From: Ascidiella aspersa
Taxonomy: Eukaryota
Length of the DNA: 64,000 bases
Reading direction: 5' to 3'
NCBI GenBank assembly: GCA_963924565.1
Contig: OZ004611.1
Coordinates: 1,054,001 to 1,118,000, forward strand
Below the pieces are notes generated by a model. That model searched no databases and was not told the origin of the DNA. It was given only the letters and a program-made list of their open reading frames with translations. A program made the position numbers and the translations under genes. This document shows, piece after piece, positions 14,474 to 63,828 of this stretch (its first letter is position 1; every line of letters starts with the position of its first letter).

Positions 14474-14635
14474 GTCAAGTCCAAGTTCTCTCAGTTTCGA
14501 TCTGATCACCTCTTTGCCTTCCTCAGTGATGCCACAATCATCGACCCACAACTGCTTGATGTTTGGAAGGACGCGAGAAAGCTCAAGAGCTCCTTCGTCG
14601 CCGATGCGGTTATTAGTCAGATCCAGCCGCTTGAT
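14474..14635 (-). pseudogene. Orphan terminal-type LRR exon (cassette D): IKRLDLTNNRIGDEG...LRELGLD
   Basis: 162 bp, open, ttcag acceptor and gtgagt donor. No upstream exons before the orientation switch at ~15130-15410. The last exon appears removed by a deletion junction at ~13100. Confidence 0.7.
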
Positions 14636-16037
14636 CTGAAACAACAAATTGACGAGCGGAATAAATTTTGAAAGCTCGATTAATGTGAGCCACAAGATCA
14701 AGGTCGAATCGTGCTTTCAACACGTTTAAAGTAAAATAGTAAAGTTTGTCGCCGTTAGAAATGTTCAAAGTAGAATATCGGATCCTTAGATTTGAATTCA
14801 ATTTTGCCGTTTATTTCGGGTAATTGCGACCAATTACTTCGCGTCTTGCGATAACCTTCGCCTGATAATTAAGTGTTTTGGGGCGAGCGTCTAACCTAAC
14901 TTGTATTGCCAATGCAGGGATTTTGCAATTTCCATAAATGCAACTTAAATGCAAGTTGCAAAAGTAATATTCCATCGTAAAACGTGCTGGCCTTGGACAA
15001 AACGCGTTACGGGGTTACTCAAGGTCAACTTTAGGACAATATTTAGCGAGGTTACTCACAGCGTAATTGTTAAGTAATAGTAACGCATTACTTGCAGTAG
15101 TAACGTTGTATTCTTTACATCATAATGTTTGACCAGCCTAGCAAAAAATTCCCAAAATCGATATTATAAGTTTTTTTTTTCTGTTCCGTAAATAGCTTAC
15201 GAAGACATGACTAACATTAATGAAAATAAAATCGAAACTATAATGTTAACGTCCTTCGGTTTTGTTCGCTTACAATGTTCAATGGCCGCCAAAGCTTTTG
15301 CTTCATATTTAAGGAGCCGCGAAAAAAGGTTGAAAAACACTGTTTTAAATTAATGATTAATGAAAGTTTAACACCTGTCCCAAATGGCTGTGGTAAGTTA
15401 TTTGGGTCAGTAAACTCACAAGTGAAATGCGAGCAAAGTATTCATGCTTAAAAATGGTAAAATGAATGCAAAGGAGAGTTTTTAGTTTGCAAGCCAGACA
15501 GAATTGTCTCAGTTTCATGCAAAGGTATATCGCTGACTTAAATCACATCTTGGTTTTTATAAACATAGCAAAGCAGTAAAAGGTGTTTCAGGGTCAGCTA
15601 AGGTGACGAAATATTTTGCCACAACAGGAAGTAAGGCGGAGGATGACGTCACTGCTGACGAGGGTACTTGTGCTTTTCACACAGTTAAGCACCACAATAA
15701 CTTTTATGTATGAATTATACGTCATCTTTGCTGAAGAAACAACTAAATTCTTTGCCAATTTTACAATAGAAATGCCGTGTGTCTCATCGCACCCTCGAAA
15801 ATAAATATTTGTTCAACTATGCGAAGCCAATTTTTGCGCTACACGCGAGAAGCGAGTGTTTTCCGTCTTTTTAATATAAATACGTCACGTTTTGTAACTT
15901 TATGACGTAACTTGTGACGTCCCCTGATCTGGAGTTGGTGAAATGCAACCGAAGTAAGCTTGTCCAGGATTTCTCGTTTCAAAACATGGAAACCCTACCT
16001 TTCAAAATCTAATCCGCTCGCCAACTCGTTGTTTCAG

Positions 16038-19000
16038 ATCAGTTGGCTTGTTCTGAGTTATAACCGCATCGACGACGAAGGAGCTCTTGAGCTTTCTCGC
16101 GTCCTCCCAAACATCGAGAAGTTGTATCTGATGGACTGCAACCTGACAAGTCAAGGTTTCAAACACATTTGCAAAGGAATCGGGATAATGACGCACAAGG
16201 TAAAGTGCTTTATTGTCGGCATTTTGTTGTTAAATGTTACCGCGACTAGAAATGTTCAAAGTGGAATTCCAAAGATTCTAGAATTATAGCTTTCGAATCC
16301 AGAATAATGAATCAAGAGGTTTGAATCCCAGTGTTTGGTGAAATATTTATAATATATATATAGGCGTTAACGACTCCGCAATTAATCATAAAATGTTTCT
16401 GACATATCGATATAGTAATCAAAATTTTAATTACAGAAGATTTACATTCTAAACAACTGTCATTTAAAGCAGTTGTTTAAATTGCATTATTGTAGGAAAA
16501 AAACAAACCAGGTTGTTGCCCCAACTTAATTTTAAGTAAATATAGTAAGTGAAATGCACCACAATAAATTCTTTACAAATTCTGTTCGTTTTTATAAGGT
16601 ATTGTTGTGATTTAGTTTTAGTTTACTACAAACGTCTTCCGTCAATAAGCCGGTAAAACATTATGATGTAAAGAATACAAAGTTACTACTGCCAGTAATG
16701 CGTTACTAACACTGCTGACGAGGGCACTTATGCTTTTCACACAGTTAAACACCACAATAACTTTTATCAATGAATTGTACGTCATCTTTGCTAAAGAAAC
16801 TTTTCCCGATTCTGTATAGCAATGACCCCCCGCGAACTAAATTTTTTGCCAATTTTACAATAGAAATGCCGTGTGTCTCATCGCAGCCTCAAAAATAAAA
16901 GTTTAGTCAACTATACCCACTTTCGCTCTACACGCGAGACGCGAGTGTTTTCCGTCTTTTCAATATAAATACGTCACGTTTTGTAACTTTATGACGTAAC
17001 TTGTGACGTCCTCTGATCTGGAGTTGGCCAGTTCAACCGTATTAAGTTTGTCCAGAATTTATCGTTTCAAAATATGGCAACCCTACCATTTAAAATCTAA
17101 CCTCGCTCGTCAACTCGTTGTTTCAGATCACGTTGCTGGATCTGAGTGATAACCGCATCGACGACGAAGGAGCTCTTGAGCTTTCTCGCGTCCTTTCAAA
17201 CATCGTGCAGTTGTATCTGCGGGACTGCAACCTGACAAGTCAAGGTTTGAAACACATTTGCAAAGGAATCGGGGAAATGACTCACGAGGTAAAGTGCTTT
17301 ATTTTCGACATTTTGTTGTTCAATGTTACCGCGACTAGGAATGTTCAAAGTAGAATCCCAAGGTATTCTAGAATAAAAGCTTTGGAATCCAGAATAACTA
17401 ATCCTTGTGCATTTGTTAGAAATTATTTACCTTTTGTTTTTTTGGTCAAATATTCATAATATATATAATCTTAAACGACTCAGCAATTAATCATAAAACT
17501 TGCCAATATAGTAATGAAATACAACTTAATAAATTCTTCACAAATTCTGTTCGTTATTTATAATTTATTGTTGTGATTTAGTTTTAGTTTACTACAAATG
17601 TGATCTGTCAATAAGACGGTCAAACATTGTGATGTAAACAATGAAGTCATTAATGCTAGTAATGCGTTGTCACTTAACAATTACGCTATGAGCAACTTCG
17701 CTAAATATTGGCCTAAAGTTGACCTTAAGTAACCTCGCAACTCGTTTTGTCCACAACCACAGATGCTGTTTCTGAATAATAACGACTTCGGCGACGAAGG
17801 AGCTCTTGAGCTTTCTCGCGTCCTCCCAAACATCGAGGATTTGTGGGTCAATGGTTGTGGCATCACTTGGGAAGTCAAGAAGGTGATCAGATCGAAACTG
17901 AAAGAACTTGGACGTGCCGTGAGTAACAACAATAAATAAACCAATAACCTAATTTACTGACACGAAAAGCCACTGTGTTACGTCACAATATAAATAATTT
18001 GATCTGACACCAACCACTAGAGGCGCCAAAAAAGAAATAAATAAAAAAGGGCGAGAACAATATATTGTTATTATGATAAAAGGAATAATTAGGTTTTTCG
18101 TCTAAAATATAAATGTATCTGTAGTTGTAACTGTTAAACTTCTCTGAAACAAAAATTAAAATATAAAGTATGTTAAAAAGCGAAACATAACTTTTTATAT
18201 TTATATTTTACGACTAATTTACTAGCGCAAGAAAAACACTTGTTGCTTTGAGCCAATGCAGTTTTGTTTATCTTGGCATAGAGTCACAGTTTCTGGAATA
18301 ATATTAACAACACTTTGGAAAAATGGTAGCTTTTATTCAAACTGTTTGTATGACACTGCAAAATAGCAGCAAATTATAAATCCCTGATAAAAATTGATAA
18401 AATTCCCATGTTACAAAATAAATATACGGAACAGCATATTAAATGTGCATTAGGAAAAGTCACTAAATTATCTGTAAAAAACACACATTTTATTTGTAAA
18501 TTTATTTTAATCTTTATTTTCCACATAATTTCAAACCAAATTTTCTCTAATAAATCACATTCTAAATAACAACTCAAGTTTCCCATCCAGCGATTAAATC
18601 TAAGTTCAAGGCTCGGAAACCTAAGGTTCGTTTAATAATGTAATCCCTATCGCAGATAAATCTAAGCTATAACTTGTCATCATGACTCGAAAAAAGCTGC
18701 GCGCAACCGTGATCATTTTGAAACAGTAACTATTACACCTAAAAAAAGTATTACCCCAAAACCTGTTTGTTTTTTCGCGGCTGTTAGTTTATTGAGTCTC
18801 TTTGCATCCATGGCCTTGTTCGTACCACGGCACACCGTAATCAAAGTTTTGTAAACTTTAATTTCGCCTAATATGCTATCTTTTTAAACGATCACTATTT
18901 TTGCCAACCTAAACTAGATGCTAAATTATATGACCCTCCTGTAAATACTCACAAATTAATGGTCGTCACACTTTGGAAAGGCCAAAAAAAAATTGGAAAT

Positions 19001-19225
19001 AAATTCCTTATTTTCCGTTTTACCTTATCTTAAGGAGCAATAGATATTCGCTACTCACTCAATAATCCGAGCAGCTATGCTTATTCTTATTAATTTGACT
19101 CCGTGATGTCTTGCGTTAAATAAGCTGAAAAGGAAACAGAAGTTACACTTGCATTGAAACCTTTTACAGCATTTGAATTGCTTCCATCTTGTATTTTACA
19201 GATGAACCGCCGCGTGTATTTTTAA
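16038..19225 (+). pseudogene. Headless LRR cassette C: exons 16038-16199, 17127-17288, 17763-17918, 19202-19225
   Basis: All exons are open, phase 0 and AG/GT bounded, and splice to ~167 aa ending MNRRVYF*. No copy of the family's 5' exons is seen upstream on the plus strand. Confidence 0.7.
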
Positions 19226-25366: not shown

Positions 25367-28300
25367 CTATTGAAAGAAGCCAAAATCCACGCTGTCCATC
25401 TGCAAAACACAAGATAAAAGTAATTGTTGTAAAAGGTTTTTATGCATAAGTAACTTTTGTTCCTTTTCAGCCTATTTAACACCACGGAGTCCAATTAACA
25501 TGAAAAAGCAGATTATTGAGTAATTAGATTATTTCTAAAAAAAAAAACTATGCGTCCATGGCACCGACACAAGATACCAGGGAATAAAAAGACAAATAGA
25601 TCAAAAACTTTTACATTTACGATGTGATTTAGTTGCCAAAAGTTGTTTAGGATTTATCAGGGAAATAAAGATTAAGCTAAATCAACAAATACAATTTCCC
25701 AAAGCACATTCAATAAACTATTTTGTAATATGGTAATCTTATTAATTTTTATTTATAATTTATCATTAGCTGAAAGAAAAAAATGATTTGTTGCATCATA
25801 AGCTGACAAAATAATTTGTCTAATTACTTTGTTTTTGCTTAGTCATGCAAACTTTTGAGTAAAACCAAACATTTTCCCCAAATGTTTTTAATATTATTCC
25901 AGAAATTACGAATCTAAACCAATTCGATTTTATAGTTGTTATGTGTTGGCAGTTTTATTTTAAGTACTCCTATATTGAATAAAAGAATTAATCATGATAG
26001 TCGCCATTCCTGTTAAATAGACAGGTGACATTCGCATGTGGATTTACCATTAAACTATATATTTGGATGTTTCAATCTGATTTTGAGCTGCATGTTGAAA
26101 CAGCTTATCTATGTAACAGTGTTAGAGTACAAGAAAAACAGACATGTGCACCTTCAGGCCCCAGTTTGTACTATAGCATACCCCTTATGTATTAGGTAAT
26201 AGGCCTAGTTTACCACCTCTACATGGCAATGCTGATACATTCCTTAGGCAAACACATCAGTTAAGTTTAGCGGCGCGAACAAAAAAAAGAATAATTTAGG
26301 CGCAAAAATATTCTTCACCAGAAAAGGCTGGCCCAGACAAACAAAACCGCATTAGCTCAAGGCAATAATTTTTTAACGCCAGTTTTTTAATTATTCGTAA
26401 AATAGAAAATAAATATAAAAAGTTACGTCTCGCTATTTGACACATTACTTTAAATTTTTGCCGCAATAATGTTTTACACTTCTCCCCGGATTTATTTGTT
26501 TTTTTTAGAGCCTCTAGTGTTGGTGTTAGACCAACTTATTTACATTGTGACGTAACACAGTGACTTCTCGTGTCAGTGATGTAGGTTTTTAATTAATTTA
26601 TTGTTGTTACTCACGTCACGTCCAAGTTTTCTCAGTTTCGATCTGATTACCTCCCTGCCTTCCTTAGTGATGCCACAATCATTGACCCACAACTTCTCGA
26701 TGTTTGTGAGGACGCGAGAAAGCTCAAGAACTCCTTCGTCGTCGATGCGGTTAGCAGTCAGATACAGCCACTTGATCTGAAACAACAAATTGACGAGCGA
26801 ATTTAGATTTTAAAAGGTAGGGTTGCCATATTTAGAAACGAAAAATCCTGGAAAAACTTACTACGGTTGAATTTTGACCAACTCCAGATCAGGGACGTCA
26901 CAAGTTACGTCATAAAGTTACAAAACGTGACGTATTTATATTAAAAAGACGGAAAACACTCGCGTCTCGCGTGTAGAGCGTAAATTGGCTCAGTATAGTT
27001 GAACAAAATTTATTTTCGAGGGTGCGATGAGAGACAGGGCATTTGTATTGTAAAATTGGCAAATAATTTAGTTCGTGGGGGGTGTAGCGTGTTTTTCTTG
27101 TCATTTTGTCAACTGCGAATTCTAACTTTAATTATTAATTTGCGCCTTACTTTAAAAATAGGGATTAGGGACTTGGGTTCATATTTCGAAATGTATTAAA
27201 CTGTAACATCTTATTTTGGTTGGTATGTGTTTAATCTGTTTGTGCACACGGCCCTTTTTAAGCCAGTTTAACATTCTCTGCACACGGGACATTTAATGGT
27301 GCGTTTCTCGTATTCTTTCTAATCTGACCTCTGGCGATTCTCCACTGGACTTTTAAATTTAATGACTGCCAATTTCGCAAGTAATGGTCACGTTGTTCTG
27401 ATCTAATCTTTTCGCTGGCGCCAGCCGTCCTCGGACCGAAGAATTAATCTGTTTTGCCATCGCTATAACTTTACTGTCTTTATTAAATTGCGTGCTTTCC
27501 TATAACTCGTTGACGCCCTTCCCGCACTTCCAGTTCTTGCGTAACTGCTTTTTAGAAGGTGTCTATATTAATCGGCGTCAGAGCGTCTCTTTTGTCCAGT
27601 ATTTGGGAAGTGGGCCATTGCGTTTAGAGGTCAGCACGTTTTTGTGTAGTGTCCTGTCTGTAAGTAACTTTTGCTCACGTATTAAGCGTTGGTGTGGTGT
27701 TTGACATTTTGGTTCATCTAATACACTTAGTTGCTTGGGTTAAGTTGTGTGGTCTGTAGAATAAACTTAGGCATTGAGGCAAATAACTCCCGATTATCTT
27801 TTAAGAACTCATTGCGGTTGCGTCCTGTCGGACAAGTATAGGTTAGGCGGTAGATTCTAATATACTAGGGCGCGGCAGGGCGTAACACGTTTGGTGCCCC
27901 GGTGTTTGTGGTTGCTATTTGCTTCCGGAATAAGGTATTCGGGTATAAGATTTTGTTGCGCAAAATTTGGTTGTGTTTTGTGTTGCGAACGTGTGTTTGT
28001 CGGAATTTTTGAAGCGTGAATTGGGCGTTTGTGTTGGTGAGAGTTGAAAGAAGTCTAGTCTGAAACCTTTTCGCGTTTGTAAAATCATGGAAAAATTAAC
28101 GTCTGTTTTGGCGTCTTTAAACAAGCCGGTGGGAACTAGCGAAGGTTCGGGCGTGTCGCATCAGGACCGCAAAATGCAAGCACAGAATTATATTGCTGAA
28201 ATTGAAAGACTTAATCTTGAGTTGGACTTGTTGCGTTCTTCTAGACAAGATCATTGCATAGCCCTTGAGAAATCTCGCGATATGGCAAAGGGAATCGAGC

Positions 28301-31300
28301 AGCAATTAAGGATTGATCAAAAAGCGCACAAGTTAACTTCTAACGCTAAGGAGGCGGAAATTAAGGCTTTGCAAAAGTTATTCAAAGACGATTCAGCAGT
28401 AAAATCGTCCACTTTGGTTGCGTTGGCGTCTAGGCCAGTTTCATATGATGTAGAGGATGTGAAAGATGTCTCGTTAGAAAGTCCAGCGCCTCCGTATGTT
28501 TCGAATTTGTATCCGGGATTGGGCGATAAGCAAAGCGATGTTCCTGGCGATGTGCCAGCTGAATCGGTGAAACCAGTGTTGGTAGGTGAGAAATTTACCG
28601 AGGATTCTTACAATGCTTTAACGCCTCCGTCGAGCTACATACCGCGAACGAGCGTTTCAGATCCACCTCGCTTACCTCGTTTTAGCTTTGAAACCCCATG
28701 GGCTAATCCGCAGAAGTTAAAGTTTGACAATTCCACTAAGAAGCGCGTTGACTTGGCACAATTAATGCGCGCCGCTCCAGGAAAGGAACTTCAATGGCTC
28801 GAGTTAAATGTCCGCCAGTTAAGGCAATTAGGTTTAAATAACGAAAATTTGTTGACAACGCTGTTGGCGACTTGTGACACGCATTTGTCTCTACAATCTT
28901 TTTTACAAGCTTTGCTTTTGAATATAAACATGACCAGTGAACAAAAGCTAACGACCCTGCAGGAGCACGTAAAGGCAACGTTTAAAAAATCTCATCTGGC
29001 ATTGATCAGTCATTTGCGCGCTTTGTTGGAGAATGTAAGATATGACAATGTCGTTGTAAACCCAGTTCAGGCGATAACTACGGCTTTTGCTCAGGAAGGC
29101 ATTTTGTTGGATGACTTGGCAAGCGACAGTCCGTTTTTGCGTTTAGTTGAGGAGGTGTTGTTAAAGAAATTGCCTACCAGTGTTGCGTTGCAAATTGAAG
29201 GCGAGCCTTGGAGAAATATGCAGAAAATATTACACCGCTATTTCACCTTATCTACAGCCCGTTCCAGCAGCTCGGATCCTGTCAAGAAAGTTTTGGTCTC
29301 GCATTTTGATGACGGTAAGACTGTTTTATCTGATAATAATGAGGAGTTGAAAAAACTAACTGAAAAGGTTTCACATTTAAGCGGGTTGGTGTTGCAGAAA
29401 ACTATTGATGAAAAAAACGATAGGACTAACAATTGTGAATCGAATCAGCAATCTAATATGTTATCTAATGATATAAGGTCTCGTTCTAAATGTTTCTTTT
29501 GTCAGGTTGAGGGCCACTTTGCTCGTGACTGCGATTTGAAGCGGTTGTTTCGTGCAAATGGTTGGAACGTGTATTCAAGAACAGGTGACGAAGTTTTTTT
29601 GTCCTCGAGATCTGCGGGCCGTGGCGGCGGAAGATCGACCTCTGCAGGCCCGTGGAGAGATGGGCGTTGGTCTCGGCAACCGACCTCGGCTCGGGACTCG
29701 GACAACGGCGGGAACTCGCAACGTTTTTCCGGCCGAGGGCGGGCGCTGGGTCGTTCTGACCAACAGGTACCTCGTTTCAATTCATTCAATCGTTCAAATA
29801 CCTTTCGGAATAATGATTACTCACAAAACGCCTTTTCAAAAAACTAGATTCAGGCTGGGGCTGCAATGAACCGCCGCAACCTCAGCCTTCTCGAATGACG
29901 ACACAATTGAATCACGTTTTGACTTCACCTAATGGCACTGCGCATTTCTTTGTAACAGATAACGTGACTTGTCAACCATTTCTTTTAGATACGGGTGCTG
30001 GGGCTAACATAATACATCCTTCTGCGTTGCCTAAGTCTATAAAGATAAGCCCTTCGAATGCTAAATTTTCGACTTTAGATGGGACACGCAGTGCTTTGAA
30101 ATCACAAGGAACAGTCTCTGTTCCGATTATGATCTCTTCCACTACTATAACTCTTGAGTTTGAAGTTTTAGATCAGACGCCTTATAATATCATTGGAATT
30201 GCTGACATCATTCAACACGACTTGCTGAACAAAGGAACTCTTGAGATTCGTGGTTCGTATAACGACGCGGTACAGGTATTGTCTGCTTTGCGTTGTGATC
30301 CATCAGAGGCGTTTGATAACCAAAAAAAGTTGACTTACGAACAGGCAGCAAAAATGGCTTCAGATCGTCTTCCTCAGGCGGCGATTGAGCCATCCGTAAA
30401 AACTTTAATAGCTCCTGAAAAGTTTGACGAAATCTTAAACAAATTTCCGCATATCTCTGATTTAAAATATAATCTGCAGCAACCGTATAAGCTGCCTTAT
30501 AAATTGTCCATTCAATTAAAACCTGGCAGCCATCGGCCAATAACTGGCCCCATATATAGCACTGGTCCCGAGCAAATGGCGGTTTTACACAAATGGCTAG
30601 AAGAATTTTTAGACCTAGGAATTTTGAAACGGGATTCCACTCCTTGGCGGAATCCAGTATTTTTGGTAAAGAAAAAGCCATCAGGATACAGAGTCGTTGT
30701 TGATTTTCGCGCTTTGAATAGCATTTTAACTCAGGATGATTACAGTTTGCCTCGTGTTGACTCAGTTCCGAAATATATACAAGGTAAAAAATTTTTCAGT
30801 GCAATTGACTTAACAAAAGCTTTTCACCATGTACAGGTGGATGAGGATTCCACACGTTATCTGGGGTTAGCTACGGAATTCGGATCAGCTTCGTGGTCTA
30901 ATTGCCCTCTTGGGGTTAAATCCGCCCCAGGCGTCTTCCAGGCCAACATGGATGAGTTGAGCAAGGAAATCTTGATTCGTTACAATGAGTGGAGACAGTC
31001 GAGAGGTTTGAGTGTTGTTTGTGAAGCTGTAAAATGTTATATTGATGATATTCTTATTGCCACTGAGACTGAATCTGAACATTTGAAACTAATTGACATC
31101 GCTTTAGGAGTTTTGTCTGAATACAATTTAACTGTAAATAAGGACAAATGCGTTTTTGGGAAAGATAGAGTCCGTTTCCTGGGTCATGTCGTTTCTGAGG
31201 AGGGTCAGCGACCGCTCTACTCTCGTTTACAAGGTTTACTTGAGATTCCTTTGCCTAAAACGGTGCATGATTTACGTCAATTTTTGGGTGTGGTAAGATA

Positions 31301-39097: not shown

Positions 39098-39140
<43 letters not shown>

Positions 39141-44250: not shown

Positions 44251-44316
44251 GGATCCCTTGGGGGTCCGTGAACTAGTTTTAGGGAGTCCATCAACGCCTA
44301 ATTTAAATACAGCAAG

Positions 44317-46147: not shown

Positions 46148-46450
46148 TGTTTGTTCCTAGGTATACGTACCTTGCCCAAAGAAGACCTGAAGACCTCCAG
46201 CGCCGAATTGGTTTACGGCTCAACCATTCCAATTCCAGGAGATTTCATCCCACCTACGCACGAGGAACCCCCGCCGATCGAATATGTACGAACGTTGCGC
46301 AAGGCACTGTGCAAATTGCTACCAGTGCCAACATCACGCCATTGTAACACTGAACATTCTGTACCGCAATTGTTACTACACAGTCATTTGGTTTTCGTTC
46401 GTAAAGACTCTTACAGACCCCCACTGAATCCACCATATGAAGGTCGTTTT
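46148..46450 (+). pseudogene. Gypsy integrase C-terminal remnant
   Basis: LGIRTLPKEDLKTSSAELVYG...VFVRKD...PPLNPPYEG (GPY/F-type module). Confidence 0.8.
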
Positions 46451-49867: not shown

Positions 49868-52031
49868 TAAGCTATTTCTTACTGCGTTGGACACCAGTCA
49901 AATAACCCGGTTCCGTGCAGTTCAGAGGCTGGACCTATTCAAATGTGACACGTGTAAATTATTATCGCATGTTTAAAGAAATGCGCTATAGTGCGGCAAA
50001 AATAAAACACAGCTTTTTAACGATACTTTAACGGGTACTGCAATTCGTTATCATTAAAAAGCTATGTTTTGCTATTTTATATTGATTGTTTGCAAAAACT
50101 AAAGCTAAAGCTGAGCAAAGCGCCAGGTGATTATAATATTACAAAATAATAAAATGGGAAAGTTGATAATATTTAACATTGAACTCGCCAAACTAATTTC
50201 CTCATAATTGTAAAAATAAACTGCAAAACAATGCTACCAATTTGAATTGCGCTTACGGTTTTCTGCGTAGTACTTTATTTTTAACAACGCAAATTAAAAT
50301 AATAAACTATAATCGACAGCAATTGTTTGCCTTGTTTAAAAAGCTGCAACGAAAACAAGTGTCGCCGTACATTTAAAAAAACTTTTCATCCATTTCTCTT
50401 TTTTGTAATTAATGAGCACAATAGTCACCATTTTAACTGACAGAACGTTTACTTGTAGCGTTCATGAGCAGCCGTGTTGTTTTTGCTCCTTTATAGTTTT
50501 TAAGTATTGCGTTATAACTCAGTCAGTTGCTGCTCGAAACGGTTTGCTAGAATATTTATTTGTGTTCGATGCGGCAGTTCATAGCAAACGCTAAATAAAA
50601 AAGTTCAAACTTTCGCGCAAAAATCCATAACTTAACCTCCTAACAAAACAAAATTGAAACATTCTAAAAAATCATAACATGAATGTAAGAGCCGCATGTA
50701 ATTGGGTGAAGAGCCGAGTGTTGGCCACACCTGTTATATGATAAGCTCTTACAACGACAGGTCAATAACTATCGGCCAATTGTGGTGTAGGAATCAACCT
50801 CTGACAGTTTATTGAGTGAGCTGCTTTAAAGTTATATAACTCTGATAATTTTAATTTGGTGTAACTTTGTACGTTCGTGAATTATGCCGAACATAATTAA
50901 CACATCTTTAACTAGTAATTTTTGATAATTACTAAAACCTCTTGTTAAAGTCGCCAGTGACTTCTTAATTCGGATATTTAATAACCTAGTAAGGAAAGTT
51001 TATATTAAAGACCAGAACACTTAACCCAAAGTACAGATTTATTAGATGCAAGAGTTGAAAACTACCACACCACAAACAATTGTTATACTTGGACGCAATT
51101 ACTCACAAACAATCAAATGACAAAGCATATAACACCTAACGTCTTACTCTCTAAATGCACCAGGCCTAGCCCAAGCGTCTACTAAAATCTATACACTGTT
51201 CGAAAACTCTTTCTCACGGGCACTTAGGCGCTGCCGGGGACTCACGGCCGCTGGTTTACAGGGTGGTTGTCTCGTGGAAAGATTACATGGCGGCCATTTC
51301 CTAGAAAGTTAAACCCAGCTATTAACCCTGCGGTATACGGGCGATAATAATGGGCGTGAGATTTGCAGATTGTTGAGATAGAAAATAACAGTCCGGAGTC
51401 CAATTAAACACTCGAACATTTTTCAAATGGTTCATTATCACCAATCGAATTTTGTATTGTCTCATCTAGCGTTCGCTCTGCTTTTAAACAATAGATTGAA
51501 ACGACGTAAGGTTTTGCGTTTCTGAGAATTTCCAAGAAAATTTTCCAAGCTTTTGCGTTTCTCAGCCATTTCCAAGAAAGTTAAATCCTATAGGCCGGCG
51601 GTATAATGGGCGTGAGATTTGCAGATTGTTTTGAGACAGGTTCGTAGTCCAATTAAAGACGCGAACAGCACACGAGACAGCACGAAAACATTACGTCATT
51701 GTATATGTACCAAACAGCGAAAACTTAATTCTTAAACCTATAAAATATAAGCAAGAAAACACAGATGCATGAAAGACATTTGAGCATTTTTCAGTGATTA
51801 TCAAATGGCCATTCATATTTATTTCACAAATTATTTAATAGAGTTCATATGGCAGCCCTAGGTTAATAGATTACATAAAACAAAACGACTATATTCATAT
51901 AAAGCTTATGAACGACGATGCATTTATAATGTCACATATACAACACAATTGATAACGCCAATGTATAAATTTCCACGCTGTTGTACGCGCTACACAGGAT
52001 AAGAAATGAGCGAGTCGAGAAACCTCTCCGA

Positions 52032-52103
52032 GCTAGTGTAGCTCAGTTGGTAGAGCGATATTCTGTATAATCAGGGGTCGTGAGTTCGAACCTCACTGCA
52101 GGC
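52032..52103 (+). ncRNA. tRNA-like sequence (tRNA pseudogene or SINE head), paralog of 19557-19628
   Basis: A box plus perfect B box GTTCGAACC; acceptor and anticodon stems imperfect. Confidence 0.55.
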
Positions 52104-52417
52104 TATTTAATAGATCAACAGATTTAGTGAGTCTGCGATGGCTTTCGGTTTACTAATTACACGTAAACCCTAATCGTTTGAAAAAAGGGGCTAGATCACA
52201 GTTGCAAACACACACATATGTGTGCATGTTTCATTCAGGTAAGTATAAGTTAGATTTTAAACGAGGATTGCGATGATAAGTACATTGGTTTAAGTTTCAA
52301 AACAACCACAACACTGTTGAGCATTGGAAGGTTGTTGGCGACTAAATGAACAGAAAGGCTGAAGCGTGTTGCATAAAAAGAACATCACAGAGTCAAATAG
52401 TTGCTTCCCTATTTGAA

Positions 52418-55400
52418 CTATTGAAATAAGCCAAAACCCACGCTGTCCATCTGCAAAACACAAGATGGAAGCAATTCAAATGCTGTAAAAGGTTTCAATG
52501 CAAACTTCTGTTTCCTTTTCAGCCTAATTAACGCAAGACATCACGGAGTCAAATTAACAAGAATAAGCATAGCTGCTGCTCGGATTATTGAATGAGTAGC
52601 GAATACCTCTCGCCCCTTAAGATAAGGTAAAACGGAGGATAAGGAATTTATTTCCAATTTCTTTTTGGCCTTTCCAAAGTGGGACGATCATTGATTTGTG
52701 AGTATTTAAATGAGGGTCATATAACTCATCATCTAGTTTAGGTTGGCAAAAATAGTGATCGTTTAAAAAGATAACATATTAGGCGAATAAAAAATAAATT
52801 TGCTAAGTTTACAAAACTTTGATTACGGTGTGCCGTGGTACGAACAAGGCCTTGGATGCAAAGAGACTCAATAAACTAACAGCCGCGAAAAAACAAACAG
52901 GTTTTAGGGCAATACTTTTTTTAGGTGTAATAGTTACTGTTTCAAAATGATCACGGTTGCGCGCAGCTTTCTTCGAGTCATGATGACAAGTTATAGCTTA
53001 GATTTATCTGCGATAGGGATTACATTATTAAACGAACCTTAGGTTTCCGAGCCCTAAACTTAGATTTAATCGATGGATGGGAAACTTGAGTTCTTATTTA
53101 GAATGTGATTTATTAGCGAAAATTTGGTTTGAACTTATGTGGAAAATAAAGATTAAAATAAATTATCAAATGAAATGTGTGTTTTTTACAGATAATTTAG
53201 TTACTTTTCCTAATGCACATTTAATATGCTGTTCACGTATATTTATTTTGTAACATGGGAATTTTATCAATTTTTATCAGGGATTGATAATTTGCTGCTA
53301 TTTTGCTGTGTCATACAAACAGTTTGAATAAAAACTACCATTTTTCCAAAGTGTTGTTAATATTATTCCAGAAACTGTCACTCCATGCCAAGATAAACAA
53401 AACTGCATTGGCTCAAAGCAACAAGTGTTTTTCTTGCGCTAGTAAATTAGTCGTAAAACATAAATATAAAAATTATGTTTCGTTTTTTAACACACTTTAT
53501 ATTTTAATTTTTGTTTCAGAGAAGTTTAACAGTTACAACCACAGATATATTTATATTTTAGGCGAAAAACCTAATTATTTCTATTATCATAATAACAACA
53601 TATTGTTCTCGCCCTTTTTTTATTTATTTATTTTTTAGGCGCCTCTAGTGGTTGGTGTCAGATCAAATTATTTATATTGTGACGTATCACAGTGGCTTCT
53701 CGTGTCAGTGATGTAGGTTTTTTATTTATTATTGTTGTTACTTACGTTACGTCCAAGTTCTCTCAGTTTCGATCTGATCACCTCCTCGCCTTCCTCAGTG
53801 ATGCCACAACCATTGACCCACAACTTCTCGATGTTTGGGAGGACGCGAGAAAGCTCAAGAGCTCGTTCGTCGTCGATGCGGTTCCCACTCAGACTCAGCT
53901 TCTTGATCTGAAACAACAAATTGACGAGCGGATTAGATTTAAAAGGTCGATTAATGTGAGCCACAAGGTCAAGGTCAAATCGTGCTTTCAACATGTTTTT
54001 AAGTAGAATATTGGATCCTTAGTTTCGAATCCAATTTAGCCGTTTGTTTTAAAAGATAATCAATACAGAAACATGATATATGCAGCATTGCTCTACACGT
54101 TGTTCCCATAATTATTATTTCGTAACAACGCGGTTAAACACGATACAAAAACAGAAAAATTAAATAAATGTAAACATAAATAAAATATTGTTAAAGTTAG
54201 GTGAGTTTATGGTTTGTTATTTCATGCATTTTTATTGGTGGGTAGGGATGTTCAAAGTAGAATACCAGATCCTTACAATATCGGGCTCCTCATCCTTATA
54301 TTCGGATCCAATTTTGCCCTGTATGTCGGGTAATTGGAACCAATATAAATTACTCGTTTCACTGCAAGTTTGTAGCGGTGGCGAAAGAAATACTGCGCTT
54401 GCTTTAAATGTATTCATGTAGTGCGTGGTACGGGTTTTTGTGCGACCAATTACTTGCCATTAACCTTCGTGTATTGATTATTTGCAAGGCAAGTGTTATT
54501 GGGCGAGCGACTAACGTGTAATGCCAATGCAGGGATTTCGCAATTTCCTTGAATGCGACAAGTTGCAAAAGTAACATTCCATCGTAAAATGTGCTGGTTT
54601 TGGACAAAACGTGTTGCGAGGTTACTCAAGGTCAACTTTAGGCCAATATTCAGCGAAGTTACTCATAGCGTAATTGTTAAGTGACAACGCATTACTAGCA
54701 TCAATGACTTTATTCTTTACATCACAATGTTTGACCGTCTTATTGACAGATCACATTTGTAGTAAACTAAAACTAAATCACAACAATACCTTATAAATAA
54801 CGAACAGAATTTGTGAAGAATTTATTAAGTTGTGTTTCACTTACTATATTGGCAAGTTATATGATTAATTGCTGAGTCGTTTAAGATTATATATATTATG
54901 AATATTTCACCAAAAAAACAAAAGGTAAATAATTTATTACAAATGCACAAGGATTCGAAACCTTTTATTCTAGAAAACTTTTTTTTTCTTTTTATTTATA
55001 CTTTTGGATTCTACTTTGAACATTCCTAGTCGCGGTAACATTGAACAATAAAATGTCGAAAATAAAGCACTTTACCTTGTGAGTTATTTTCCCGATTGCT
55101 TTGCAAATGTGTTCCAAACCTTGACTTGTCAGGTTGCAGCTCCACAGATACAACTCCACGATGTTTGGGAGGACGCGAGAAAGCTCAAAAGCTCCTTCGT
55201 CGTCGATGCGGTTAAGACTCAGATTCAGCCGCTTGATCTGAAACAACAAATTGACGAGCGGATTAGATTTTAAATGGTAGGGTTACCATATTTTGAAACG
55301 ACAAATTCTGGACAAACTTAATACGGTTGAATTGGCCAACTCCAGATCAGAGGACGTCACAAGTTACGTCATAAAGTTACAAAACGTGACGTATTTATAT

Positions 55401-58400
55401 TGAAAAGACGGAAAACACTCGCGTCTCGCGTGTAGAGCGAAAGTGGGCTTCGTATAGTTGACTAAACTTTTCGAGGCTGCGATTAGACACACGGCATTTC
55501 TATTGTAAAATTGGCAAAAAATTTAGTTCGTCGGGGGTCATGGCTGTACAGAACCGGGAAAAGTTTCTTTAGCAAAGATGACGTACAATTCATTGATAAA
55601 AAGTTATTGTGGTGCTTAACTGTGTGAAAAGCATAACCCTCGTCAGCAGTGTTAGTAACGCATTATTGGCAGTAGTAACTTTGTATTGTTTACATCATAA
55701 TATTTGACCGGCTTATTGACAGAAAACGTTTGTAGTAAATTAAAACTAAATCACAACAATACCTTATAAAAACGAACAGAATTTGTGAAGAATTTATTGT
55801 GGTGCACTTCACTTACTATATTTACTAAAAATTAAGTTGGGGCAACAACCCGGTTTGTATAATTATTATTTTTTTTTGGTTTTTTCCTACAATAATGTAT
55901 CGCAATTTAAACAACTGCTTTAAATGACAGTTGTTTAGAATGTAAATCATCTGTAATTTAAATTTTATATATCGATATGTCAGAAAAATTTTATGATTAA
56001 TTGCTGATTTGTCGTTAACCCCTATACATATATATTATGAATATTTCACCAAAAAAATAGAACTAAAATAATTTACTACAAATGCACTGGGATTCAAGAC
56101 TCTTGATTCATTATTCTGGATTCGAAAGCTATTATTCTAGAATACTTTGGGATTCTACTTTAAATATTCCTAGTCGCGATAACATTGAACAACAAAATGT
56201 CGACAATAAAGCACTTTACCTTGTGAGTTATTTTCCCGATTGCTTTGCAAATGTGTTTCAAACCTTGACTTGTCAGCTTGCAGTCCATCAGATCCAACCC
56301 TTCGATGTTTGGGAGGACGCGAGAAAGCTCAAGAGCTCCTTCGTCGTCGATGCGGTTCTTACTCAGATCCAGCCGCTTGATCTAAAAACAACAAATTGAC
56401 GAGCGGATTAGATTTTGAAAAGTAGGGTTGCCATATTTACTACGGTTGCATTAACCAACTCCAGATCAGAGGACGTCACTAGTTACGTAACAAAGTTACA
56501 AAACGTGACGTATTTATATCAAAAAGACATAAAAACACTCGCGTCACGCGTGTAGAGCGAAAAATGGCTTCGCATAGTTGACAAAATATTTATTTTCGAG
56601 GGTGCGATGAGACACGCCGCAATCTTATTGTAAAATTGGCAAAATTTAGTTCGTGGGGGGTCATTGTTATACAGAATCGGGAAACGTTTCTTCAGCAAAG
56701 ATGACGTACAACTCATTGATAAAAAGTTATTGTGGTGCTTATTTGTGTTAAAAGCACAAATACCCTCATAAGCAGTGACGTCATCTTTCGCCTTACTTCC
56801 TGTTGTGGCAAATAATTTCGCCACCTTAGCTGACCCTGAAACACCTTTAACTGCTTTGCTATGTTTATAACAACCAAGATGTGATTTTAAATCCCCGCTA
56901 CCTTTGCATGAAACTGAGACAAATGTGGCTGGCTTGAAAACTAAACACTCTCATTTCCATTAATTTTTATCATTTTTGAAGCATGAATATTTAGCAATTT
57001 CCTTAAATGCGACAAGTTGCAAAAGTATCATTCCATCGTAAAACGTGCTGGCCTTAGACAAAACGCGTTACGGGGTTACTTAAGGTCAACTTTAGGGCAA
57101 TATTTAGCGAGGTTACTCACAGCGTAATTGTTAAGTAATAGTAATGCATTACTGGCACTATAGTAACTTTGTATTCTTTACATCATAATGTTTGACCGGC
57201 TTATTGACGGAAGACGTTTGTAGTAAACTAAATCTAAATCACAATAATACTTTATAAAAACGAACAGAATTTGTGTAGAATTTATTGTGGTGCATTTCAC
57301 TTACTATATTTACTAAAAATTAAGTTGGGGCAACAACCCGGTTTGTATAATTATTATTTTTTTTTGTTTTTTTCCTACAATAATGTAACGCAATTTAAAC
57401 AACTGCTTTAAATGACAGTTGTTTAGAATGTAAATCATCTGTAATTTAAATTTTCTATTAGTATATCGATATTACAGAACAATTTTATGATTAATTGCTG
57501 ATTTGTCGTTAACGCCTATACATATATATTATGAATATTTCTCCAAAAAAATAGAACGTAAATAATTTACGACAAATGCACTGGGATTCAAGACTCTTGA
57601 TTCATTATTCTGGATTCGAAAGCTATTATTCTAGAATACTTTGGGATTCTACTTTGAACATTCCTAGTCGCGGTAACATTGAACAACAAAATGTCGACAA
57701 TAAAGCACTTTACCTTGTGAGTTATTTTCCCGATTGCTTTGCAAATGTGTTTCAAACCTTGACTTGTCAGGTTGCAGCTCCACAGATACAACTGCTCGAT
57801 GTTTGGGAGGACGCGAGAAAGCTCAAGAGCTACTTCGTCTTCGATGCGGTTAAGACTCAGAAAAAGCCCCTTGATCTGAAACAACAAATTGACGAGCGGA
57901 TTAGATTTTGAAAAGTAGGGTTGCCATATTTACTACGGTTGCATTAACCAACTCCAGATCAAAGGACGTCACTAGTTACGTAACAAAGTTACAAAACGTG
58001 ACGTATTTATATTAAAAAGACGGAAAACACTCGCGTCTCGCGTGTAGGGCGAAAAAAGGCTTCGAATAGTTGAACAAATATTTATTTTCGAGGGTGCGAT
58101 GAGACACGCCGCAATCCTATTGTAAAATTGGCAAATCTTTTGTTCGTGGTGGGGTTATGGATATATATAATCGGTAAACGTTTTTTCAGCAAAGATGACG
58201 TACAACTCATTGATAAAAAATTATTGTAGTGCTTATTTGTGTTAAAAGCATAAGTACCCTCATAAGCAGTGACGTCATCTTTCGCCTTACTTCCTGTTGT
58301 GGCAAAATATTTCGTCACCTTAGCTGACCCTGAAACACCTTTTACTGCTTTGCTATGTTTATAACAACCAAGATGTGATTTTAAATCCCCGCTACCTTTG

Positions 58401-61400
58401 CATGAAACTGAGACAAATGTGGCTGGCTTGAAAACTAAACACTCTCATTTCCATTAATTTTTATCATTTTTGAAGCATGAATATTTTGCAATTTCCTTAA
58501 ATGCGGCAAGTTGCAAAAGTATCATTCCAGCGTAAAATGTGCTGGCCTTAGACAAAACGCGTTACGGGGTTACTTAAGGTCAACTTTAGGGCAATATTTA
58601 GCGAGGTTACTCACAGCGTAATTGTTAAGTAATAGTAATGCATTACTGGCACTATAGTAACTTTGTATTCTTTACATAATGTTTAACCGGCTTATTGACG
58701 GAAGAAGTTTGTAGTAAACTCAAACTAAATCACAACAATACCTTATAAAACGAACAGAATTTGTGTAGAATTTATTGTGGTGCATTTCACTTACTATATT
58801 TACTAAAAATTAATTGGGGCAACAACCTGTTTTTTATAATTATGTTTTTCTCTGTTTTTTTTTTCTGCAGTTATGTATTACAATTTAAAAAACTGCTTCA
58901 AATGGCAGTTGTTTAGAATGTAAATCATCTGTAATTTGAATTTTGCTATTAATATATCGATATGTAAGAACAATTTTATGATTAATTGCTGAGTCCCTAT
59001 AGGCTATATATACATTATGAATATTTTACCAAAAAAATATAAGGTAAATAGTTAATACAAATACACTGGGATTCGAAATTCTGGTTCGTTATTCTGTATT
59101 CGAAACCTATTGTTCAAGGATACTTTTTTTTCCACTTTGAACATTCCTAGTCGCGGTAACATTGAACAACAAAATGTCGACAATAAAGCACTTTACCTTG
59201 TGAATCATTTTCCCGATTGCTTTGCAAATGTGTTTCAAACCTTGACTAGTCAGGTTGCAGTTGAGCAGATTCAACTCCTCGATGTTTGGGAGGACGCGAG
59301 AAAGCTCAAGAGCTACTTCGTCGTCGATGTAGTTAGCAGTCAGATCCAGCAACTTGATCTGAAACAACAAATTGACGAGCGGATTAGATTTTAAATGGTA
59401 GGGTTACCATATTTTGAAACGACAAATTCTGGACAAACTTAATACGGTTGAACTGGCCAACTCCAGATCAGAGGACGTCACAAGTTACGTCATAAAGTTA
59501 CAAAACGTGACGTATTTATATTGAAAAGACGGAAAACACTCGCGTCTCGCGTGTAGAGCGAAAGTGGGCTTCGTATAGTTGACTAAACTTTTCGAGGCTG
59601 CGATTAGACACACGGCATTTCTATTGTAAAATTGGCAAAAAATTTAGTTCGTGGGGGTTCATGGCTGTACAGAACCGGGAAACGTTTTTAGCAAAGATGA
59701 CGTACAATTCATTGATAAAAAGTTATTGTGGTGCTTAACTGTGAGAAAAGCATAACGGCCCTCGTCAGCAGTGTTAGTAACGCATTATTGGCAGTAGTAA
59801 CTTTGTATTCTTTACATCATAATATTTGACCGGCTTATTGACAGAAGACGTTTGTAGTAAACTAAATCTAAATCACAACAATACCTTATAAAAACGAACT
59901 GAATTTGTGAAGAATTTATTGTGTTGCATTTCATTTACTATATTAACTAAAAATTAAGTTGGGGCAACAAACTGTTTTGTATAATTATTATTTTTTTTGT
60001 TTTTGTCCTACAATAATGTATCTCAATTTAAACAACTGCTTTAAATGACAGTTGTTTAGAATGTAAATCATCTGTAATTTAATTTTCTATTAGTATATCG
60101 ATATGTCAGAAAAATTTTATGATTAAATGCTGATTTGTCGTTAACGCCTATATATATTATAAATATTTCAGTAAAAAAATAGAACGTAAATAATTTACGA
60201 CAAATGCACTGGGATTCAAGACTCTTGATTCATTATTCTGGATTCGAAAGCTATTATTCTAGAATATTTTGGGATTATACTTTTAACATTCCTAGTCGCG
60301 GTAACATTGAACAACAAAATGTCGACAATAAAGCACTTTACCTTGTGAGTTATTTTCCCGATTCCTTTGCAAATGTGTTCCAAACCTTGACTTGTCAGGT
60401 TGCACTCCCCCACATCCAACTTCTCGATGTTTGGGAGGACGCGAGAAAGCTCAAGAGCTCCTTCGTCTTCGATGCGGTTATAACTCAGATCCAGCATCTC
60501 GATCTGAAACAACGAAGTGACGAGCGGATTAGATTTTGAAAAGTATAGGGTTGCCATATTTACTACGGTTGCATTAACCAACTCCGGATCAGAGGACGTC
60601 ACTAGTTACGTAACAAAGTTACAAAACGTGACGTATTTATATCAAAAAGACAAAAAACACTCGCGTCACGCGTGTAGAGCGAAAATTGGCTTCGCATAGT
60701 TGACCAAAATTTTATTTTCGAGGGTGCGATGAGACACACGGCATTTCTATTGTAAAATTGGCAAAATTTAGTTCGTGGGGGGCCATGGATATAGAGAATT
60801 GGGAAACGTTTCTTCAGCAAAGATGACGTACAACTCATTGATAAAAAGTTATTGTAGTGCTTATTTGTGTTAAAAGCATAAGTAGCCTCGTCAGCAGGGA
60901 CGTCATCTTTCGCCTTACTTCCTGTTGTGGCAAAATATTTCGTCACCTTAGCTAACCCTGAAACACTTTTAACTGCTTTGCTATGTTGATAACAACCAAG
61001 ATGTGATTTAAATCCTCGCTATCTTTGCATGAAACTAAGATAATTGTAGCTGGCTTGAAAACTAAACACTCTCCTTTCCATTAATTTTTATCATTTTTGA
61101 AGCATGAATATTTTGCTTGCATTTCACTCGTGTGTTTACATACTTCGCTTCCTTAAATGCGACAAGTTGCAAAAGTATCATTCCATCGTAAAATTTGCTG
61201 GCCTTGGACAAAACGCGTTACGGGGTTACTCAAGGTCAACTTTAGGCCAATATTCAGCGAGGTTACTGGCGTAATTTTTAATTAATAGTAACGCATTACT
61301 GGCAGTAGTAACTTAGTATTCTTTGCATCATAATGTTTGACCGGCTTATTCACAGAAGACGTTTGTAGTAAATTAAACTAAATCACAAACAATAACTTAT

Positions 61401-63828
61401 AAAAACGAACAGAATTTGTGAAGAATTTATTGTGTTGCATTTCACTTGCTATATTTACTAAAAATTAATTGGGGCAACAACCTGTTTTTTATAATTATAT
61501 GTTTCTCTGTTGTTTTTTTTTCTGCAGTTGTGTATCGCAATTTAAACAACTGCTTCAAATGGCAGTTGTTTAGAATGTAAATCATCTGTAATTTAATTTG
61601 TCGATTACTATATCGAGTTAGAAAACGCTTTCTGATTGATTGCTGAGTCGCTAAAGACCTGTATATATATTATGAATATTATATATTAAGAATAACAAAA
61701 ATAGAAGGAAAATAGTTAATAACAAATACACTGGGATTCAAAATTCTGGTTCGTTATTCTGGATTCGAAACATATTGTTCAAGGATACTTTTTTTTCCAC
61801 TTTGAACATTCCTAGTCGCGGTAACATTGAACAACAAAATGTCGAAAATAATGCACTTTACCTTGTGAGTCATTTTCCCGATTCCTTTGAAAATGTGTTT
61901 CAAACCTTGACTTGTCAGGTTGCAGCCAGTCAGATCCAACTGCTCGATGTTTGGGAGGACGCGAGAAAGCTCAAGAGCTACTTCGTCTTCGATGCGGTTG
62001 TTACCCAGATCCAGAATCTTGATCTGAAAGGGAAACAAATTAACGAGCAGATTAAATTAACGAAGTGAGCCACAAGGTCGAATCGTGATTAATCATTTTA
62101 AAGTAATCAGAATTTTCTACTGATGGAAACCGACTTGAGTTTTTAGATGTTCTCCATGTTACCAAAACGTCTTCACAATGTGGTTTTATCACAAAGACTA
62201 CACCACACCAACAGCCTTTGATCGATGTTTTATTATCTGTGGTTGTTACGTCATTTTGCTGACTACATTTTATTTAGTTGCGGCTTGCCCACTTGCCTAG
62301 AACAGGTGCTTTAGTTTTTTATTAGGGTTAATCTTAATTTATATTTTGTCATTTTTTACATACTGACGCTTAATCTTTATCATTGTTTAAAAGTAAAATA
62401 TAAAAGATGGTGGCGGTAATATTCAACAACAAAATGTCGACAATAAAGCACTTTACCTTGAGAGGCATTTTCCCGATTGCTTCGCAAATGTGTTTTAAAC
62501 CTTGACTTGTCAGTTTGCAGCTCCACAGACGCAACAACTCGATTGGTTTGTCGACATGCTGGAGCATCCGCCCCAAAGCGTGGCATGAACTTGTACCGAT
62601 TGGTCGGCGGCTAAAATCAGCCCTCACAGGGAAGTGCTTTGCGAAAGATTGGAGCACTGCTTCATTGCATTCTTGCAAATCAACAATCATTTCAACAATA
62701 CCTAAACACAACTTTATATTTATTAAATATTAAAAAAAAGAAACAAAGAAACAACAAACAAATGAGGTGTTAACCAGTAATGGGGATTGTGACATCACAA
62801 GTGCAAAAACAATGGTGTTTTGTTAACGGGTGTAAAAAATTAAAATAAATCAGCCGAGTAAAAATATCACAAAGTAACCGAATGGTTATATTCTTACTTT
62901 TGGGGTTTCGTTTGAATTCCTCGAGAAAGTGTTCGTAGAACATCTCAGCCTTGACTGTGAACATGGAAATCATTATTAATAATCAGAACGGTTTACTGTT
63001 GTTTTAGCAGTTATGTGTGTCTTACTATAAATGTTTGACTTTGTCGCTATTTACTTGTTATTTACACGACTATTTAACCACAATATGGCAGCAGACTAGT
63101 GAATGTTTTGATGTTAGTTGTCGCGTTGTCTAATCTCATTCTTATTGCTGTGTTTTATTAAATATGTTTGTTGTGTAAAATGTTTACAGTAACAATAAAT
63201 ACATAAAGTGGATTAAATCTTATAATTAACAATGCCAGGTTGGACAACTTAATTTATATAAAAAAGTCAGGATTTAAAAGCCAGTTTAAATAATAACCAC
63301 TGACTGGATTAAATTGTCAGTTCAGCTGAAACAGTAGCTTTCAGCAAATAACCTACATTTTCCGAAATTCTGCTGAAAACCACTAACATAATTAAAAACA
63401 TGGTAATTAATTTGAAAGCATATTAGCACACTAAGTATATTCTAGTACTGCAATGTTTGGCCATTTCAGTTATTCTTGTTGAAAACAAGTTTAAGTATAG
63501 CCAAGTTTAAAAATTGCCACTTACTTTTATTTTGTTGGTTCTGCGAATTGTCGGTTAAGGTTTGATCGACACCAGATTGACTTGGTTGAGTGGCAGATGT
63601 TGATGGTTGTTGATTGACAACCTGCATACAAACATAGCTACTTGACCTTATACCACAAAAACTGTTAATAAATATTAAGTTAAATGTTTGTGCCAGCATT
63701 GTGGATCCAATACCTTGAAAGAGTAGTCAAATTTTTCAGGCCACAAAGTAGATTTTGGGGTCGCTGCGTACCACTTGCTTTTTTCATATTCTTTATTATA
63801 GTAAATATTAAATAAATTTGCAAGTTGG
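52418..63828 (-). CDS. LRR gene A (RI/NLR-type LRR, ~560 aa visible, probably 5'-incomplete); exons 63714-63828, 63525-63621, 62898-62954, 62457-62701, 61862-62023, 60342-60503, 59197-59358, 57714-57875, 56220-56381, 55076-55237, 53746-53907, 52418-52450
   Basis: All boundaries are GT-AG, phases are compatible and there are no internal stops. Alternating LxLxxN / LxLxxC repeats; ends MDSVGFGLFQ*. Confidence 0.8.
55076..62023 (-). repeat. Tandem array of six exon+intron modules (periods 1520, 1145, 1483, 1494, 1144 bp)
   Basis: Intron sequence recurs nearly verbatim around each 162-bp exon. Confidence 0.92.

Follow-up and report, generated by a model that had tools for sequence, protein, structure and literature searches.

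The stretch of Ascidiella aspersa DNA analysed here (the window: 64,000 nucleotides, C5:1054001-1118000 of a 308.6-Mb assembly, where C5 is contig OZ004611.1) carries repeated exons that each encode two leucine-rich repeats (LRRs), and it raises the question of which genes these exons serve and how copies so alike in their helices came to differ so strongly in their strands. A preliminary description had proposed a diversifying immune or allorecognition receptor system, in a modular LRR family hypervariable only on the predicted ligand-binding face. From the evidence set out below, the exons probably belong to a young, expanded family of NACHT-LRR proteins (NLRs), likely ascidian cytosolic sensors, whose predicted binding face has likely been diversified in the germline by selection together with unequal crossover and gene conversion; headless sets of 3' exons in the same region would be young 3' duplicates and a sequence reservoir.

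The core LRR motif occurs 13 times in the window, ten times on the minus and three times on the plus strand, and all 13 two-LRR exons are bounded by AG and GT, in phase 0 and free of stops; twelve measure 162 bp and one 156 bp (17763-17918, owing to a shifted acceptor). These counts agree with the preliminary description, and the first- and second-strand words it listed all match the extracted exons. Of the 13, nine are of an internal type and four of a capping type with a different second half, and rather than forming one array they are split among at least four separate tails or fragments. The window also contains two related upstream LRR exons ('pre' exons), two exons X, two exons Y and four stop exons. 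Genome-wide, a 17-nt core pattern allowing at most one mismatch matched 123 times, and its reversed control never. Roughly 680 kb of fetched DNA, the window among it, yielded 58 internal exons; 55 intact ones entered the counts, and three were set aside, one because it measured 165 bp and the others because they had lost an acceptor and a donor, respectively. Over these 55, entropy reaches 1.6-3.3 bits at codons 3, 5, 7, 8, 28, 30, 32 and 33, most core positions show 0-0.3 bits, and L4, L6, N9, L29, L31 and C34 are fixed or nearly fixed. Stops are absent from the 58 internal, 26 capping and 21 pre exons. DNA identity between copies is 84-94%, with a mean column identity of 84% across 30 exons. 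The introns, described earlier as near-identical, are so only in the immediate neighbourhood of the exon: among window copies they differ by 6% over nt 7-60 and by 12% over nt 7-120, with indels.

In LRRs, the x positions of LxxLxLxxN/C point to the concave surface and the adjacent loop. A profile of 30 modules matches ribonuclease inhibitor (RI) and the LRRs of NLRP1, NLRP9 and NLRP14 in the PDB, and a search for longer homologues gave a single distant match. An AlphaFold model of one 54-residue module (predicted local distance difference test score, pLDDT, 84) has strands at residues 3-5 and 28-30 and helices at 13-25 and 38-47, so that codons 3-5 and 28-30 fall in predicted strands; the horseshoe and its binding surface are inferred from this single-module model and the LRR consensus. 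The variable positions are mostly exposed strand or loop positions, as had been claimed, but not exclusively so: codons 12, 47 and 51 are dimorphic, and codons 15 and 42 score as selected, which extends the variation beyond the concave face.

The receptor identity of these exons is given by genes whose NACHT heads lie outside the window; in the window a search revealed no NACHT domain or first exon, including hidden ones in front of headless tails. In a genome search for NACHT, 96 matches were obtained among 96 scored of 283 candidates, and two of them, C5:1136170 (minus) and C5:1040155 (plus), flank the window. The upstream NACHT exon on the same strand matches Pfam PF05729 (E=2.8e-18; 66.7 bits versus a cut-off of 26.7) with an intact GKT, and from it in-phase exons continue down to a stop exon. 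The minus-strand gene, modelled with its splice junctions from DNA for the window subfamily, comprises a first exon, a Q/H-rich exon, PSTSQQ-repeat exons, NACHT, three linker exons and then, in compatible phases, X, Y, pre, five internal, capping and stop exons; we call the part from X to stop a tail. After NACHT, a NOD2_WH match (E=0.0034) lies below cut-off, and HD2 is assigned tentatively through the Phallusia NLR P0002, whose own HD2 match falls below cut-off. The C-terminal RI-like LRRs lie in the NACHT reading frame, with PF13516 over cut-off, PDB matches and compatible splice phases.

Among 119 candidates scored there are at least 14 close NACHT paralogues (84-100%) and at least 41 more distant ones, most of the latter near contig ends. 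The Walker A GKT is present in 12 of the 14 close paralogues and K is changed to N in two. NACHT exons, with proportions of nonsynonymous and synonymous differences (pN, pS) of 0.052 and 0.095, are under mild purifying selection. The named relatives, from 10 of 150 matches looked up, are NLRs of Phallusia, Ciona, Clavelina and Styela; the top ascidian NACHT-LRR matches show 33-43% NACHT identity and mostly low-complexity N-termini, and are annotated as uncharacterised. No N-terminal effector domain was found by Pfam or Atlas in the low-complexity N-terminus with its Q/H-rich and PSTSQQ exons, and the Death domain, the one such domain searched across the genome (CARD, PYD and TIR were not), had five matches, none nearby. 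This agrees with a survey according to which CARD is missing from ascidian NLRs (PMC11508797). As they are reported without an N-terminal effector domain, membership of this family would be of the effector-less NLR type. By sequence, then, the window exons are identified as LRR exons of an effector-less NLR family, in line with the immune-type receptors proposed earlier.

Selection was assessed on a concave set of eight codons, the x positions named above. Pairwise counts of nonsynonymous (dN) and synonymous (dS) change gave, at concave codons, dN 0.70 and dS 0.20 for the nine internal window exons and 0.75 and 0.25 for the 55 exons, compared with framework values of 0.065 and 0.063 (window copies) and 0.070 and 0.097 (55 exons). 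The conserved strand positions interleaved with the concave codons have dN 0.05 and dS 0.24, and the flanking introns differ by 6-18%. Framework divergence is thus low, as the description of an almost invariant helix had it, but since framework dN about equals dS this invariance is better read as homogenisation than as constraint. Codon models on 54 distinct exons favoured M2a over M1a (twice the log-likelihood difference, 221; omega, the dN/dS ratio, 5.6), with a posterior of 1.0 at codons 3, 5, 8, 28, 30, 32 and 33; codons 42 and 15 were also picked and codon 7 was not. With fixed partitions, omega was 6.7 for concave and 0.87 for framework codons. Pairwise counts and site models both show excess amino-acid replacement at the x positions of strand and loop; for concave omega we adopt a cautious value of about 3. 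NLR P0002 of Phallusia mammillata has two near-identical two-LRR modules that differ at the same strand positions (75% different at x positions versus 19% in the helix part, in four repeats only); it is the only one of 28 relatives scanned with such modules, a motif scan finding few repeats in most.

The copies also exchange sequence. Over 42 cluster exons, distances in strand 1 do not correlate with those in strand 2 (r=0.03, p=0.24), whereas those of the intron flanks on either side do correlate with each other (r=0.45); in the four-gamete test, 125 of the 210 informative pairs of sites do not fit a single tree. Four of five shared DNA haplotypes of strand 1, and likewise four of five of strand 2, occur with different partners, and identical 27-bp strands reappear in different genes beside different partners. 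The two strands of an exon therefore assort independently, with reassortment inside the 162-bp exon. Eleven pairs, not independent of one another, whose flanks diverge by 1.6% show a concave pN of 0.22 and a concave pS of 0.15, compared with about 0.04 in the framework. Behind the intact minus-strand gene, whose own tail is tail 1, the window holds two complete headless tails, 2 and 3. The tail 2 pre exon, likewise hypervariable at x positions, matches one paralogue at all 201 framework sites but differs from it at 12.5 of 26 nonsynonymous concave sites, and from that of tail 1 at 12 of these 26, with 0.4% divergence in the upstream 750 bp. This concave difference exceeds what point mutation alone would give and fits conversion from other copies. 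Between the window subfamily and a sister subfamily, NACHT DNA is 70% identical and pre and capping exons are 91-93% identical (one pair). Internal exons number 0 to 7 per tail (26 tails and fragments mapped, paralogues of one genome), in agreement with the earlier suggestion that module number varies by recombination.

Several results weigh against this interpretation, and part of them would suit a largely mutational origin, in which the helices are kept alike by recent duplication and conversion, the strand codons are under relaxed constraint or locally hypermutable, and selection for new specificities is not needed. The concave set was fixed after the entropy table had been seen. Framework omega of about 0.87 means that purifying selection on the helices is weak, and the near-equality of framework dN and dS is what homogenisation would leave. 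The M2a omega depends on the tree (5.6 with the exon tree, 11 with another), branch lengths were scaled and not re-optimised, and recombination inflates tree-based omega. A minimum-spanning allele count favouring synonymous paths gave N/S 0.96 within concave codons (p=0.62), so that the most conservative count does not confirm the excess inside those codons; the same count against all exon synonymous sites gave 2.3 (p=5e-6). Synonymous change is about threefold higher in and beside the strands, which leaves room for local mutation, and copies with 1-2% flank divergence show multi-nucleotide codon changes. Against a mutational origin, concave dN is about three times local dS and four to six times intron divergence with the interleaved L, N and C fixed, no stops arise in the variable codons, and the Phallusia NLR shows the same contrast over its four repeats; we regard this origin as very improbable. 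Foldseek with the 54-residue model returned zero matches at E<=0.001. Exact strand copies in the fetched headed genes were found for 3 of 19 and 2 of 19 headless-tail strands (16% and 11%), and with so few the donor role of headless tails stays a proposal.

RNA, taken from one raw run (X3) under the same species label of which about 6% was read, adds a further reservation; an index search listed no RNA data set containing the stretch itself. Of this run, 467 reads mapped to 51001-64000. The pre exon was covered to a depth of 18 and the capping exon to 10.8, in both cases solely in the orientation expected of minus-strand RNA. The loose ends of reads at the pre and capping exons (29 and 62 reads) match the Y and stop exons of the sister subfamily, so most of the signal comes from that subfamily and not from the window's. 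Expression of the window subfamily itself amounts to a few sense reads, with sense-only depths of 1.7, 0.6 and 1.1 in its own Y, X and stop bins. In paralogue reads the capping exon's GT donor is used and joined to a short stop exon. A reading in which the capping exon runs on to a stop was discarded, because the loose read ends show that it is spliced to a distinct stop exon. On contigs C1, C2, C3, C4 and C5 the sister subfamily, which is expressed more strongly, clusters in roughly the outermost 1 Mb, and it apparently has pre and capping LRR exons only. A gene at C5:1951k joins a window-type start to a sister-type NACHT.

We favour selection acting on exchanged sequence as the probable source of the variable face. 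In the mechanism we propose, conserved helix DNA would serve as a homology track, so that strands 1 and 2 are swapped as units; conversion between copies would produce these swaps, unequal crossover promoted by near-identical helix DNA would change exon number, and selection would retain new concave combinations. In NLRs generally, ligand binding to the LRRs frees NACHT for ATP-driven oligomerisation. By analogy, a ligand on the predicted LRR horseshoe would release NACHT here and lead to ATP-driven oligomerisation. The spare tails would most likely be a sequence reservoir.

The two headless tails comprise linker, HD2-like, LRR and stop exons and are accompanied in the window by fragments. Tail 2 (63621-52418, minus) has X, Y, pre, six internal, capping and stop exons, and its duplicated segment starts about 1.1 kb upstream of X, just past the window edge; tail 3 (41655-25367, minus) carries one internal exon, with a retroelement within an intron. 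The features are as follows.

63525-63621, minus: tail 2 exon X, Q/S/T-rich linker with a phase 0 acceptor
62898-62954, minus: tail 2 exon Y (KAEMFYEHFLEEFKRNPK), putatively part of HD2
62457-62701, minus: tail 2 pre exon, putative HD2 end and first two LRRs, aligning to Phallusia P0002 581-658
61862-62023, minus: tail 2 internal two-LRR exon 1
60342-60503, minus: tail 2 internal exon 2
59197-59358, minus: tail 2 internal exon 3
57714-57875, minus: tail 2 internal exon 4
56220-56381, minus: tail 2 internal exon 5
55076-55237, minus: tail 2 internal exon 6, modelled as strand-helix-strand-helix
53746-53907, minus: tail 2 capping LRR exon
52418-52450, minus: tail 2 stop exon (MDSVGFGLFQ, then stop)
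41559-41655, minus: tail 3 (headless) exon X
40940-40996, minus: tail 3 exon Y
40512-40753, minus: tail 3 pre exon
39319-39480, minus: tail 3 internal two-LRR exon
27083-38007, plus: long terminal repeat (LTR) retroelement within a tail 3 intron, not part of the receptor
26615-26776, minus: tail 3 capping LRR exon
25367-25399, minus: tail 3 stop exon (MDSVDFGFFQ, then stop)
16038-16199, plus: internal exon of a partial tail
17127-17288, plus: second internal exon of the partial tail
17763-17918, plus: 156-bp capping exon of the partial tail
19202-19225, plus: stop exon of the partial tail (MNRRVYF, then stop)
14474-14635, minus: lone capping exon for which no stop exon was found, likely a rearrangement remnant
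579-599, plus: stop exon of a neighbouring plus-strand NLR gene (SDSVHF, then stop)

The plus-strand partial tail (16038-19225) sits downstream of a plus-strand NLR gene with its NACHT exon at C5:1039888. The two 805-bp LTRs of the retroelement are identical, pointing to a very recent insertion; it encodes gag (zinc knuckle) and pol (protease, reverse transcriptase, RNase H and integrase; one in-frame stop, 32388-32390), and has a 209-aa open reading frame (ORF) and a 792-aa envelope-like ORF that has no Pfam match and, in the Atlas, weakly resembles viral class I fusion proteins. Reading by eye suggested fragments like a long interspersed element (LINE) reverse transcriptase and an LTR integrase between tails 2 and 3 (44913-45590 and 46115-46528, minus).

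Over its first 2 kb, tail 2 shares 98.6% identity with tail 1, which gives direct repeats in front of both (C5:1132764-1130760 and 1118722-1116722). The same multi-tail layout recurs at C5:782k (two extra tails) and C5:872k (one extra). Four headless tails (type A) share one breakpoint about 930 bp upstream of X, while tail 2 has its own at about 1100 bp. In a gene of the sister family at C2:103881, three capping-plus-stop tails stand in tandem, and their strand residues differ from tail to tail. Multi-tail layouts have thus originated at least three times in this genome. The sister locus (C2:103881-173700) additionally has one lone stop exon.

In an alternative reading, with receptor identity and selection as above, the headless tails would be functional 3' ends among which splicing chooses, much as in Dscam-like genes or genes with alternative last exons, so that a single NACHT head could be joined to any of several LRR tails downstream. 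All five headless X-to-stop tails begin inside the linker-X intron and retain a phase 0 acceptor that fits the head's phase 0 donors; they stem from two independent breakpoints, with a third origin in the sister-family gene; headless exons have zero stops; and tails only 0.7-0.9% diverged in their flanks, as the type-A tails are, differ at 10-13 of 26 nonsynonymous concave pre sites. The tails are, however, so young that intact reading frames prove little: for the four type-A tails only about two disabling changes would be expected by our estimate, and their intactness is not significant. In the reads mapped (about 6% of one run) there was no RNA joint, including from head to spare tail or past a skipped exon; every upstream tail has its own stop exon, and tail 3 contains an 11-kb retroelement. 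Moreover, 3' duplications are expected to be harmless, and their recurrence requires no function. We consider it rather unlikely, though worth keeping in view, that a chordate NLR gene here combines a shared NACHT head with a choice of independently diversifying LRR tails by alternative 3' splicing, which atop strand shuffling would make a combinatorial intracellular repertoire.

The 2-kb direct repeats fronting tails 1 and 2 and the intact downstream cassettes with a common framework also recall somatic rearrangement like that of lamprey variable lymphocyte receptors (VLRs) or class switching, by deletion between the repeats or templated copying from spare tails. The headed genes are nevertheless complete in the assembly and the cassettes retain introns and splice sites; recombination signals or enzymes were not seen, none having been searched for, and DNA joints in runs X1 and X2, whose contigs are highly fragmented, are indistinguishable from paralogue contigs. 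We give such rearrangement hardly any credence, and return to germline diversification, with tails as a reservoir, as the probable account.

Some further features concern the heads. A candidate for a short first exon, roughly 500 bp ahead of NACHT, was dropped since paralogues do not preserve its frame. Of the two K-to-N paralogues, C5:782035 heads a three-tail locus, and C5:824674 also lacks the Y and pre exons. The N-terminal exon C5:1143360-1142962 (minus) is rich in Q and H and carries IQHQxV-like pseudo-repeats, and N/Q/V/I-rich N-termini occur in many tunicate relatives; no RHIM or amyloid motif was found by Pfam in 14 proteins or by Atlas, and an amyloid-type signalling role of the Q/H-rich N-terminus would be a guess. 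Of the NACHT relatives, P0020 (Clavelina) has a BIR domain after NACHT and P0034 a TIR domain before it. Introns upstream of several NACHT exons contain long simple-repeat arrays, at C5:1138500-1147000, 933500-936700 and 784500-788000.

Lamprey VLRs and the hypervariable NLRs of plants, the latter with NB-ARC domains, are diversified at these same concave LRR positions. VLRs are secreted or displayed at the cell surface and are assembled somatically into an incomplete gene from flanking donor cassettes. Here, unlike in VLRs, headed genes are complete and NACHT-type, the cassettes are spliceable exons, and the LRRs follow the NACHT exon; the likeness to VLRs drawn earlier does not reach beyond the diversified surface, the modules being intron-containing exons of NACHT genes. 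By analogy, the closest working counterpart appears to be the fungal NLRs of high internal conservation (HIC). As described, these NACHT-type proteins (e.g. Podospora HNWD) have sensor repeats that are 80-100% identical and contain a few hypervariable positions under selection; the repeats are gained and lost, are exchanged between genes and evolve in concert, and such NLRs occur in animals also, tunicates being unmentioned in the main text of that source (PMC13449251). Near-identical repeats, few hypervariable positions, a repeat number that here varies among paralogues and exchange between genes are shared; on selected positions the site models agree and the most conservative count does not confirm. 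HIC repeats are mainly WD40, ANK and TPR, some with proven allorecognition (PMC13449251), while here they are RI-type LRRs, and, unlike in the HIC NLRs described there, every pair of LRRs has an exon to itself and entire tails have been duplicated behind a single head.

Other systems share parts of this architecture. Human NLRP3 and other NLRs have frame-preserving two-LRR exons, of 171 bp in NLRP3, that permit exon skipping (PMC6642158); the frame-preserving exon per two LRRs is common to both, but here exons are 162 bp (25+29 aa), cut just before the strand, PYD and CARD are absent, and copies are 85-94% identical in DNA with a hypervariable concave face and variable number. The NLR-B30.2 genes of zebrafish are described as a large expansion often near chromosome ends, with 0-6 variable two-LRR repeats plus a fixed last one, N-terminal peptide repeats and C-terminal gene conversion across NACHT groups; their LRRs are described as not very variable, with selection on B30.2 (10.1101/027151). 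The present family resembles them as a chordate expansion with variable two-LRR repeats and a last one, N-terminal peptide repeats and cross-group C-terminal conversion, and differs in lacking B30.2 and in that the LRR strands themselves carry the selection signal. Brown algal ROCO genes combine exon-per-repeat LRRs, shuffling, diversifying selection and LRR-only reservoirs, and encode ROC-COR GTPases; their single-LRR exons measure 72 bp, and alternative splicing has been documented for them (PMC11378527); shuffled and selected LRR exons with LRR-only sequences recur here, in putative NACHT ATPases. No description of such a family in a tunicate, or of tandem alternative NLR tails, was found in the literature covered, subscription journals lying largely outside it.

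No invertebrates are more closely related to vertebrates than the tunicates, which are generally credited with few specific receptors. The family described here would be an animal NLR whose LRR face shows the diversity signature known from plant and fungal NLRs, with eight defined codons as likely specificity determinants. If one head were indeed to serve several tails, the invertebrate sister group of vertebrates would possess a combinatorial intracellular receptor repertoire.

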